In this document: positions 24,050-27,300 of the stretch, piece by piece
Layout: each line of letters starts with the position of its first letter
How positions within the stretch are numbered: the stretch's first letter is position 1
Source: Planctomycetota bacterium
Lineage (GTDB): Bacteria > Planctomycetota > UBA1135 > UBA2386
Length of the DNA: 64,000 bases
Direction of reading: 5' to 3'
Assembly: GCA_020425925.1 (NCBI GenBank)
Contig: JAGQRB010000304.1
Location: 5,243-69,242, forward strand
The notes under the pieces: model-generated
The model's database searches: none
Seen by the model: only the letters and a program-made list of their open reading frames with translations
Told to the model about the DNA's origin: nothing
Translations under genes and position numbers: made by a program

Positions 24050-24322
24050 CGCGGTGCACAGAGGGCCGGCCGGCGCTTGGGCTGCGTACTCGTCCCCGAG
24101 TTTGGCGGCAGGTTCTCGGTCCATCGCTACGAGACGCCCGACACGCCGGGGTCACCAGTCGGCCGAGATGCCGAAACCGCCGCCGCGTCGGAAGTTCGGT
24201 GTGCGCCAGCAGCAACTCGTGGGTCAAGCCGCGCGGGGGAGCTGCGCGGTGACCCGGTTGCCGAGCACGCAGGGAGGCCGTAAGACACAGTCTGTGAAGC
24301 CGGAATCGGGGACCCACATGCG

Positions 24323-24361
24323 CTCTCTCTCTCTCTCTCTCTCTCTCTCTCTCTCTCTCTC
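24323..24361 (+). repeat. (CT)19C dinucleotide microsatellite, a polypyrimidine/polypurine tract
   Basis: Counted directly: 19 uninterrupted CT units from 24323 to 24360 plus C at 24361. It starts 3 nt after an ATG codon (24318-24320) and ends 10 nt before the annotated TTG of the S8 peptidase ORF. Confidence 0.95.
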
Positions 24362-24370
24362 GTCGCCGCT

Positions 24371-27300
24371 TTGAGTACGCCCGGCGCTGCGCAGGCGCCG
24401 GTCGTTGGCAACGGGGTCGCGGGTAGTTTGCCTGGCACCCAGCGCTGGATCATCTTCCTGAAGGACAGGGGCTACTCGCTGAACCAGGCCCTGCAGGCGA
24501 TCCGGAACGAGACGACGGTTGCGGGGCGCCGAGCCAGGCTGGCGACCCTGCGCCAACTCGCGAGCACGGATCAAAGCGTGATCGCACAGACCGTTGTCGG
24601 CTTGGGTGGCGTTGTGGACCGGAATCTATGGATGGCGAACGCGATCTCGGTGCACTTGCCGCGGGCCCGTCTGGCGCAGATCGCCATGGATCCGCGAGTC
24701 CGGCGACTCGAGCCGGTCCGAGCCTACCCGTTGGGCGACGTCGACGCTCCGACCGCTTTCTTGGGGTCGGTGCCAATGCCGATCGGCACGTCGACCAACC
24801 AGCACAACCACAACAAGGCGGCCGCCTGGACGATCCTGGGTGAGGGTCAAGGGGACTACAAGGGGGCCGGCGCGCGGATTGCCGTGTTCGACAGTGGCAT
24901 CGACGCCGATGTCGACGGTGCCACGCCGACGGTGGTCGACGACCACCCTGAGTTCCTGAGCACGGGTGGGGTGACGCGGATCGAAGCGTTCCTGCAGGGG
25001 CAGGACGTCAATATGACGACGCGGCACGCTGACGTGAACATCCTCCAGACGTCGGCTCCCTCACCTTACGTCGGGTTGACTCCGCCACATGGTTTTCGAC
25101 AATCGAGTCACCACACCGTAGCTGGCCATGGTACAGCGATGGCAGCCATCGCCGCGGGCTCCACCGATGGCCATGCTCCGGAGGCTGCCTTGATCGATGT
25201 GGCCATTACGAGCTATCCGTTCCTGGGTGGGTCTGCCCTATTCCGGTGGGAGACTCTCGACGTGGGCTATCTCGGGGGCATCGAGCGGTTGACCGAGTTC
25301 ATCCTCGAGAACAAGCCGGAGCAGCAGGCCACCGCCTACGTGCACGTGATTACGATCTCCTCGGGTGGCCCGCCGTCTCCCGACAGCGAGGTTGCCAAGG
25401 CACTCGACTCGCTTGCACGCTGGGAGGACATCCTGATCATCGCGAATGCCGGCAATGAGGCCGATACGACGCAAGCGAGTCACGGCTTCTACCATGGCGT
25501 CGCCGTCGGGGCGGTTCACGCCCGCGCGCCAGGCGCCGGCGCCACGACGAACTTCTCCTTCCTGCCGATGTTCTGGTCGAGCCGTGGTCCGCTGTTCGGC
25601 GATCCCGCCCGGTTGTATCCAGACCTGTGTGCGACGGGGGCGGGCCCGGGGTCGATCACCAACGGCCCGGTCGGTGCGGCTCGCCGCTTCGTCTACCCCG
25701 GGGACTTCTTCAACGTGGAAGCGCGGGGCTCCTGCCTCTTGATGCCGGGGATCGACGTCGGCGACCTGCAGTCGCAGACGCCGGCCAACAACACCTCGCC
25801 CGTGCGCTACAACTTCGGCACGAGCGAGGCCGCGGCGCAGGTTGCCGGGGCGGCTGCGCTCTACCGCGGCAAGCGATCGAGCCTGCCGAACTACGCGACG
25901 GCGGAGGAGACCCGCGCGGCTCTGCTGCTGAACGTGCTCGGAACCTTCGCGACGAAGTCCGGGACTTCGGCCGACCCTGCCGGGCAACACTGGTTCACGA
26001 ACCGCAACACGTACGGCGTGGGCTACGTTCGCGACGATCTGCTCGCCGAGTTCGCGGTACGGGATGCCGGCATCGTACCGTTGGCCGAAGTCGTCACTCT
26101 GAGCGAGACGACGACCGAGACGACGGTCTCGTACGGCCCGTTGGCCGCTGGCGAACGATACGGGGTGGTCGCCTGCTGGCGGCGCTACTTCGACGTCGAG
26201 AGCGATCAGGTGCCGCCGCCTGAGCTCGAGCTCCCGAACGTCGATCTGGTCGTGGAGTACAACGGCAACGTGATCGCAAGGTCTCAATCGACGGCCAACA
26301 GCTACGAGCGCGCGGTGTTCGAGGCACCTGCCGGCTCGTCGGGCAACAGCGCGACGCTGCGCGTCCGCCTCGCGAGCACGCCGCGCCCGGAGCAGGGTGT
26401 GGTCGTCCAGATCGTCGCCCGCAAGTTTGCTGCTGACATCGATCCTGACACCACGGAAGATCCAGTTCTCGCCTCGACGGGCGAACTCGCCGAGCTGCCG
26501 GCGGGCGCGGGCTGCACGATGCAGGCGGAGGAATGGACGGTCGCGCGGGTCGTTCCAGAGGCCTACGCCAACGCGGACGCTTGGGGTAGCGCGCCATTCC
26601 AAGTCTCGTGGAACCCGACGGGGACCTGGTACCAGCACCGCGGCTACAGTCGTGGCTTCGACCTGACGCCGTCGGGAGGCAATGGCGCGACCTACAAGTG
26701 GGTGCGCTTCTACTACGCGAGCACGGAAGTTGGCGGTGCGATGACCATCGACGGCCTCGCATTCCGCTCCTCGACGCCGCTCGATGCTCCGTCCGATATC
26801 CCCGTCGACATCCACATCGCGCTGGGGAACTTCCCAGCGAACCAGAATCCGCTGAGCTCCTACGTCACGCAAGGGACCCTCACGAGGATCCCCGATTCGG
26901 CTGGAGACTTGAGGCGAGATCACTTTCCGGTCCAACTACGCTTCGCCAACCCGTTTTCGTATCCGGGCGGGAGCCCGCTGAATATCTGGATCGTGGCGCC
27001 GACGAGCCAGATCGGCAGCAAGTTCGAAGTCGACGGCATGGACGATGGCGGGGGTGGCTACCTGTCGTATCGGCCCGTGGACAATTCTGGTCAGCTCACC
27101 TACCTGACCCAGCCGGGTGTAGCGCCGATGCTCGGCCTGCTTCAGAAGTCCTCGCCCGGCCCGAGGGTGGCTACGATTGCCGTCAGCGGCGAGCCATGGA
27201 GCGGCAACGGCGCGGTCGATTGCGAGCTGATGTGGCGGCTCGACGCGGCGTCGAACACGGCGTACGTCATGAGCCTCGGCTTCGTCGCAGCCTCGCCTCA

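Follow-up and report, generated by a model that had tools for sequence, protein, structure and literature searches.

Does a run of CT dinucleotides at the 5' end of a planctomycetal protease gene act as a switch for the secretion of its product? The question is raised by a 64,000-nucleotide stretch of DNA from a Planctomycetota bacterium (contig JAGQRB010000304.1, positions 5,243 to 69,242 of the forward strand), hereafter the window, in which a (CT)19 tract separates a start codon from the frame of an S8 (subtilase) protease, the two being out of phase with each other. An earlier note on this DNA had proposed a slipped-strand phase switch within the signal-peptide coding sequence. Homologous loci lend this proposal strong support at the level of sequence, and it is likely that the CT tract is a contingency-locus switch, that is, that the secreted S8 protease undergoes slipped-strand phase variation through a repeat in its signal peptide. 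The elements found at the 5' end of the gene, in window coordinates, are the following.

24318..24320, + strand: ATG start codon, with which the Met-Arg n-region of the signal peptide begins; frame +1 with respect to the protease
24321-24323, + strand: CGC (Arg codon) after the ATG
24323..24361, + strand: CT simple sequence repeat (SSR), the proposed slipped-strand switch (Tandem Repeats Finder, period 2, 19.5 copies, 100% matches)
24318..24374, + strand: 18-codon leader open reading frame (ORF) of the assembled (OFF) state, MRSLSLSLSLSLSLSSPL, closed by the stop TGA at 24372-24374
24362..24397, + strand: rest of the signal peptide, read in the protease frame as VAALSTPGAAQA, in frame with the ATG only at 18 or 21 units
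24371..27502, + strand: S8 (subtilase) protease ORF with a TTG start, 1043 aa, without a signal peptide as annotated publicly (MCA8949809.1)

The start codon, the arginine codon and the CT run, 39 nt without interruptions, are laid out as the earlier note described them, and the leader frame stops at the TGA that it named; the leader peptide, however, has 18 residues and not 20, the string given before being one Ser-Leu pair too long. The protease frame is open from 24284, directly after a TAA at 24281-83, and, as had also been claimed, its only in-frame start is TTG 24371, with no earlier ATG, GTG or TTG. This codon overlaps the leader stop as TTGA, and the product translated from it starts with MSTPGAAQAPVV... 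and has no hydrophobic core. Frame arithmetic places ATG 24318 in the protease frame at 18 or 21 units (counts divisible by 3) and out of it at 19 or 20. Removal of one CT unit yields MRSLSLSLSLSLSLVAALSTPGAAQAPVVGNGVAGSLPGTQRW... without a stop and joins the ATG to the 1043-codon frame, and the addition of two units does likewise, in agreement with the earlier calculation. The ON form thus reconstructed reads MR-(SL)6-VAAL-STPGAAQA, in which the repeat-encoded Ser-Leu pairs are followed by a hydrophobic stretch ending in AAQA. Its ..AQ ending matches that of about 100 family members with clear signal peptides, and at the position equivalent to 24362..24397 the homologs have a hydrophobic core that ends in the same way. 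Within the window the CT tract is the sole long perfect microsatellite, and even (CT)8 is expected 0.00 times by chance (100 dinucleotide-preserving shuffles of the window). The window thus has a non-triplet repeat in the 5' end of an ORF, and a change by whole units toggles this ORF between a full-length and a truncated form; these are two of the features of a contingency locus.

The comparison of orthologous loci that the earlier note had named as a check was carried out on loci gathered from genome and metagenome collections, which amount to 378,270 bp of non-redundant DNA; the metagenome scan contributed four loci only. Three distant homologs already display repeat-encoded N-termini (MTHTHTHTHTQ..., ...TLTHTHTHR... 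and MGSSLSLSLSLSL...). A long simple repeat is found directly 5' of the conserved mature N-terminus (..PGTERW..) in 17 lineages, the window and 16 others, and in these 16 it is preceded by a Met-(Lys/Arg) start and followed by the hydrophobic core of the signal peptide; the repeats are non-triplet and occur in both phases. The tracts, by locus (L numbers), are listed below.

Window: (CT)19
L001: (AC)14
L006: (AC)9
L002 group: (CT)12/14/15
L008: (CT)16
L009: (TCAC)13
L010: (TCGCTCAG)~6
L011: (CTCTC)6
L012: (AC)8
L013: (GT)8
L016: (CTGTC)7
L024: (CT)16
L028: (TC)13
L030: (CT)7
L031: (TCTCAGC)4
L035: (CTCA)9
L036: (CACT)11

The units measure 2, 4, 5, 7 or 8 nt and never 3 or 6 in the 17 lineages. 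Elsewhere in the collected DNA, the same thresholds return only (CG/GC)6-7 and, in three places, triplets repeated 5 times. All repeat units are free of stops in the three coding-strand frames, and the residues that they encode (Ser, Leu, Thr, His, Pro, Cys, Val and the like) are compatible with a signal peptide. At L010 the octanucleotide occurs 6.4 times at the homologous position (5890-5939) and is preceded by a strong AAGGAG at 5883-5888, with no canonical start upstream of the repeat; the assembly is based on long reads, which leaves room for an indel error or a non-canonical start. L031 (2857-2884) and L035 (2868-2903) lie on contigs that are both named Planctomycetota_UBA2386_1 in ENA assembly ERZ24842438. 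They are paralogous operons of the protease and its downstream partner gene, apparently from one metagenome-assembled genome (MAG), carry (TCTCAGC)4 and (CTCA)9, respectively, and are both OFF, which hints at several independent switches per genome.

The loci share a common order, in which a start codon, usually ATG, 3-22 nt before the tract is followed by the repeat, a hydrophobic stretch with ..AQ at its end and, after some 8-15 further residues, the ..PGTERW.. motif. The methionine and the 1-5 residues ahead of the repeat, often Lys or Arg, read MR, MKR, MIR, MKT, MRT, MSTP, MGS, MKYSQ or MKQGE. Five lineages are ON, with an uninterrupted reading from the methionine through the repeat and the core to AQ (L001, L006, the L002 species, L009 and L036). 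The window and ten others (L008, L011, L012, L013, L016, L024, L028, L030, L031 and L035) are OFF: the hydrophobic core and ..AQ are in the frame of the protease, and the Met-Lys/Arg n-region is in a different one. The leader ORFs of OFF loci are 11 to more than 67 codons long. In all 18 loci tested, the gain or loss of a single unit brings the n-region into the protease frame, and the ratio of ON to OFF is near 1:2, as random phase predicts. The distant paralogs that lack a repeat (L014 and L017-L022) possess ordinary signal peptides ending in ..AQ, as does the wider family, with about 100 to well over 100 members. The family is, therefore, secreted, and a start past the repeat would lose export.

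Public annotations reflect this arrangement. The starts of P0002, P0009, P0015, P0017, P0028 and P0001 (proteins of L001, L008, L031, L035, L023 and the window, respectively) are mis-set, being placed far upstream in a frame that does not encode a signal peptide and overlaps the previous gene, within the conserved motif LRDRGY or, for the window, at the TTG. The start is routinely mis-set, or the signal peptide dropped, because gene callers cannot cross an out-of-phase repeat.

Length variation was found within one species, whose members have the flank CAGTAGTCGACTATGGGTAGC in common (L002, L023 and L025). Its alleles comprise 12 units (ON), 15 units (ON, in L025) and 14 units (OFF, in L023). 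The 12-unit allele is present in at least four contigs (6 matches), although these were found by an exact-protein look-up, which itself fixes the unit count. Over 8.66 kb, L025 matches L002 at 99.9% identity, with a 6-nt difference in repeat length as the sole indel. Between L023 and L002 the identity is 98.6%, and past the repeat their protease ORFs differ by 1 nucleotide in 1066 aligned codons. The same OFF counts are found in independent assemblies (L031-34, L028/29 and L024/L037-39), which shows that they are not random assembly noise. Within this last set, L038 and L039, both from JGI sample 3300056831, are each 99.5-99.8% identical to L037 of another sample, and both carry (CT)16; they may represent co-existing strains or a duplication.

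The genes found in the OFF phase are not in decay. ORFs at OFF loci are intact over 977-1079 codons from the alignment start, and two OFF strains yield a ratio of nonsynonymous to synonymous substitution rates (dN/dS) of 0.19 over 1028 codons, with 146 nucleotide and 48 amino-acid differences. A neighbour-joining tree groups the repeat-bearing loci into one clade, within which sister lineages carry different units; the pairs are CT and TCAC, CT and CACT, an 8-mer and CTCA, and AC and no repeat. Since the position is kept while the unit turns over, selection would appear to act on switchability and not on a particular sequence or encoded peptide; the pattern points to selection on the switch itself. 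On balance, we favor the view that a whole clade of operons of the protease and its Kelch-like partner in uncultured Planctomycetota is under the control of SSR switches in the signal peptide, with the position kept down to roughly 30-40% protein identity and the units replaced repeatedly. Two other loci have interrupted frames. In L015 (around 4898-5056) the aligned region is interrupted by an in-frame stop 52 codons from its beginning, and in L027 (3001-6070) the protease ORF consists of two pieces, of 595 aa and 418 aa; both may be pseudogenes or assembly errors.

The protease of the window is 100% identical to P0001, that is MCA8949809.1, 'MAG: S8 family serine peptidase [Planctomycetes bacterium]'. 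This NCBI record is 1043 aa long, so its annotators also chose the TTG start. The protein is found on a single contig of 70.9 kb, its cluster at 90% has one member and its next relative, the best match in a scan of genome collections that did not retrieve the genome of the window, is 47% identical. Two domains are recognized downstream of the signal peptide.

Roughly 24863-25936, + strand: S8 domain (PF00082)
27191..27499, + strand: C-terminal domain of the protease, about 95-100 aa, homologous to the C-terminus of the downstream partner (hhalign)

The Pfam match to PF00082 covers residues 165-522 with an E-value of 2.3e-17. In an alignment of 16 sequences, D174 (FDSGID), H253 (HGT) and S485 (GTSEAA) are invariant along with more than 100 further columns, and the protein is thus predicted to contain an S8 catalytic domain with the Asp/His/Ser triad. 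Assignment to the type VII secretion mycosins (TIGR03921) was rejected, as the score of 48.3 bits against a cut-off of 278.75 denotes generic S8 similarity only. The C-terminal half of the protease is predicted to be all-beta and multi-domain (AF2 model from 15 sequences, pLDDT 71.6; an earlier model from 4 sequences, with a pLDDT of 48, was unusable). A Foldseek search of this half against the PDB revealed generic beta-sandwiches with TM-scores of at most 0.18 and no specific structural relative.

The protease is followed by a second gene.

27499..28824, + strand: partner gene, 441 aa, GTG start, own signal peptide (..GLPAQ), Kelch-like

Its GTG overlaps the stop codon of the protease as GTGA, and a GTGA or ATGA overlap is kept in 15 related loci besides the window. 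Because of this overlap, the switch probably governs both genes, the partner being co-controlled with the protease via translational coupling. Where complete, the partner comprises 433-475 aa and has its own ..AQ signal peptide. According to the earlier note, all other secreted proteins of the window have signal peptides; this holds for the partner, the only gene inspected in this respect. A Kelch beta-propeller Pfam match is found in 3 of 13 partner members, with a best E-value of 1.8e-21; the window copy falls below the threshold and has no Pfam or NCBIfam match. A profile of 13 partner proteins, including that of the window, detected no sequence relative in the PDB. The C-terminal domains of protease and partner, about 95-100 aa each, are related according to hhalign (probability 96.5%, E-value 8.9e-10), a likeness for which a profile-profile comparison was needed, as pairwise BLASTP was not significant.

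In the mechanism that we propose, slipped-strand mispairing at replication would add or remove CT units. At 18 or 21 units, ATG 24318 would be in frame and give rise to Met-Arg-(Ser-Leu)n-VAALSTPGAAQA-protease, a pre-protein that is anticipated to be exported through the Sec pathway. At the 19 units of the assembly, or at 20, the computed frames allow for the short leader only, and the protease would not be translated with an export signal. A loss of translational coupling, or polarity, would switch the Kelch-like partner too. The benefit, speculatively, might be a form of bet-hedging where an extracellular or surface product is costly or risky.

Other explanations have to be weighed against this mechanism. 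The assembly might miscount the repeat, the true tract having 18 or 21 units, the gene being always ON and the repeat a tolerated low-complexity stretch. The window does derive from a MAG, repeats are error-prone in assemblies, and Ser-Leu is compatible with a signal peptide, as short SLSLSL runs occur in those of paralogs (P0071, P0098 and P0119). Such an error is, nevertheless, difficult to reconcile with 11 of about 16 lineages being out of frame and with identical OFF counts in 4, 2 and 4 independent assemblies; moreover, tolerated in-frame low complexity would favor units of 3 or 6 nt, and none of the 17 loci has them. A miscount is, for these reasons, an unlikely explanation. The out-of-frame majority is also what pseudogenisation would produce, if expansion of the repeat had killed the gene and the OFF loci were decaying, and L015 and L027 do look broken. 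Yet the downstream ORFs are intact at all OFF loci, the catalytic residues and the other invariant columns are preserved in the alignment, and the coupled partner gene is conserved; together with the dN/dS of 0.19, the intact ORFs led us to reject decay, which has a very low probability.

Two further proposals dispense with changes in the DNA or with the coding role of the repeat. The OFF allele could be expressed as it stands, through reinitiation at the TTGA or through whole-unit slippage of the ribosome or the RNA polymerase, with tract length tuning the level. On a (CU)n messenger, the P-site tRNA could re-pair perfectly after a 2-nt shift; to our knowledge, however, efficient whole-unit slippage on repeats of 4-8 nt is without bacterial precedent. 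As for termination-reinitiation, which the earlier note had offered as an alternative route, the overlap that it described is present in the window, but it is not conserved, the leaders of other OFF loci varying in length from 11 codons to more than 67. These unrelated leader ends exclude it as a conserved mechanism, and reinitiation at TTG 24371 would in any case deliver a protease without a signal peptide. Expression of the OFF allele by either route is quite improbable. Nor does it seem credible, except as an outside chance, that the repeat belongs to a 5' untranslated or promoter region in which tract length tunes transcription or initiation, the true start lying downstream. In favor of this proposal, the upstream ATG is in frame in about one-third of the lineages, a roughly random distribution, as if the frame did not matter, and L010 lacks a canonical start upstream of the repeat. 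A scan for promoters and terminators around the repeat of the window returned nothing, including no sigma-70-like promoter, which is uninformative for this phylum. By contrast, the window has no start between the repeat and TTG 24371, itself located inside the VAAL stretch, so that a downstream start loses the signal peptide of the family; other loci have the hydrophobic core directly after the repeat and in the protease frame; the ON loci unite methionine, repeat, hydrophobic core and AQ in one unbroken ORF; and all units are stop-free and encode, on the coding strand, residues suited to a signal peptide.

Several observations weigh against phase variation of the protease by slipped-strand mispairing, or limit its reach. 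The count of 19 is the assembled consensus of one MAG contig, and some of the assemblies are based on long reads, which are indel-prone in repeats. The hydrophobic core of the ON form in the window is modest, with a Kyte-Doolittle maximum of 2.06 over 10 residues, and signal peptides were assessed by hydrophobicity and pattern only. The start codons are assigned from the sequence; that of L010 is unclear, and GTG is the candidate start closest to the repeat in L024, L011 and L036. Length is polymorphic in one of five species, as no variation was found in four others with several assemblies, whose tracts are constant: (TCTCAGC)4 in 4 assemblies, (TC)13 in 2, (TCAC)13 in 2 and (CT)16 in 4. In the species with (CT)16 (species B), the count is the same across strains that are 96-99.8% identical, which argues against extreme instability, unless the consensus hides minority alleles. 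Apparent hypermutability is, consequently, documented in one lineage only.

SSR contingency loci are considered characteristic of host-adapted pathogens, among them Haemophilus, Neisseria, Helicobacter and Campylobacter. In Neisseria, the opa genes carry CTCTT pentanucleotide repeats in the signal-peptide coding sequence that act as a translational ON/OFF switch. The present loci resemble them in having a pyrimidine-rich, stop-free repeat in a hydrophobic leader, with nearly the same pentamers in L011, (CTCTC)6, and L016, (CTGTC)7. The opa genes, on the other hand, form a multi-copy adhesin family of an obligate human pathogen, whereas the present genomes contain only a single protease paralog or a few, and have no known link to a host. 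The Haemophilus influenzae loci lic1A and hgp are tetranucleotide contingency loci with repeats just past the start codon, and are comparable to the (TCAC)n family of L009, L035 and L036. They encode enzymes that modify lipopolysaccharide, or receptors, and their repeats are mostly not in a signal peptide, in contrast to those of the protease. In Helicobacter pylori, hopZ is one of several genes with 5' CT repeats.

The closest counterpart is found among other genes of this species, namely oipA (hopH), sabA and babA, which have CT dinucleotide repeats at their 5' ends (PMC10564699). In oipA the repeats lie in the signal-peptide coding region, and slipped-strand mispairing turns the gene ON or OFF, with 5 to 11 units among the patterns listed (PMC10564699), as compared with 19 in the window. 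As is proposed for the window, the CT tract is part of the 5' end that codes for the signal peptide, to which the encoded Leu-Ser contributes (PMC10564699). The systems differ in other respects. H. pylori is a host-adapted, AT-rich member of the Campylobacterota, and its repeats control outer-membrane adhesins; here, they are found in uncultured Planctomycetota of roughly 70% GC and precede a secreted S8 protease with a coupled Kelch-like gene. The device is here kept across a deep clade (to about 30-40% protein identity) with turnover of the unit. Switching in H. pylori has been demonstrated by experiment, whereas here it is proposed from the sequence.

Enrichment of SSRs at N-termini has been reported mainly in certain pathogens (PMC3315296), and full-text searches that named Planctomycetes or Planctomycetota retrieved no account of phase variation by SSRs in this phylum. 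Given the precedents above, the mechanism is of a known type; what is new is the phylum, the family of S8 protease and Kelch-like partner, the high-GC background and the clade-wide position, kept in many genera, with turnover of the unit. This may be the first SSR contingency system described for the Planctomycetota. If the interpretation is correct, it would clearly exemplify second-order selection for switchability in bacteria other than host-adapted pathogens, and would extend stochastic ON/OFF bet-hedging to complex environmental communities; public MAG and metagenome records of the clade name no host. The locus would then offer a natural system for the study of how switchability is selected, and the protease-Kelch operon would be flagged as risky or costly to express. 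Possible drivers include pressure from phages or predators on a surface-exposed product, or the public-good dynamics of an exoprotease.

Further genes of the window include a Ser/Thr protein kinase with TPR repeats at 18311-20818 (- strand) and an AAA_14/DUF4143 ATPase at 29714-31165 (+ strand), neither of which has an evident link to the switch. An ORF at 1915-4197 (+ strand) displays weak Pfam matches only (DUF5711 and a beta-propeller model), and contains a 117-nt tandem repeat at 2610-3261 (5.6 copies, 73% matches) that would encode repeats of 39 residues.

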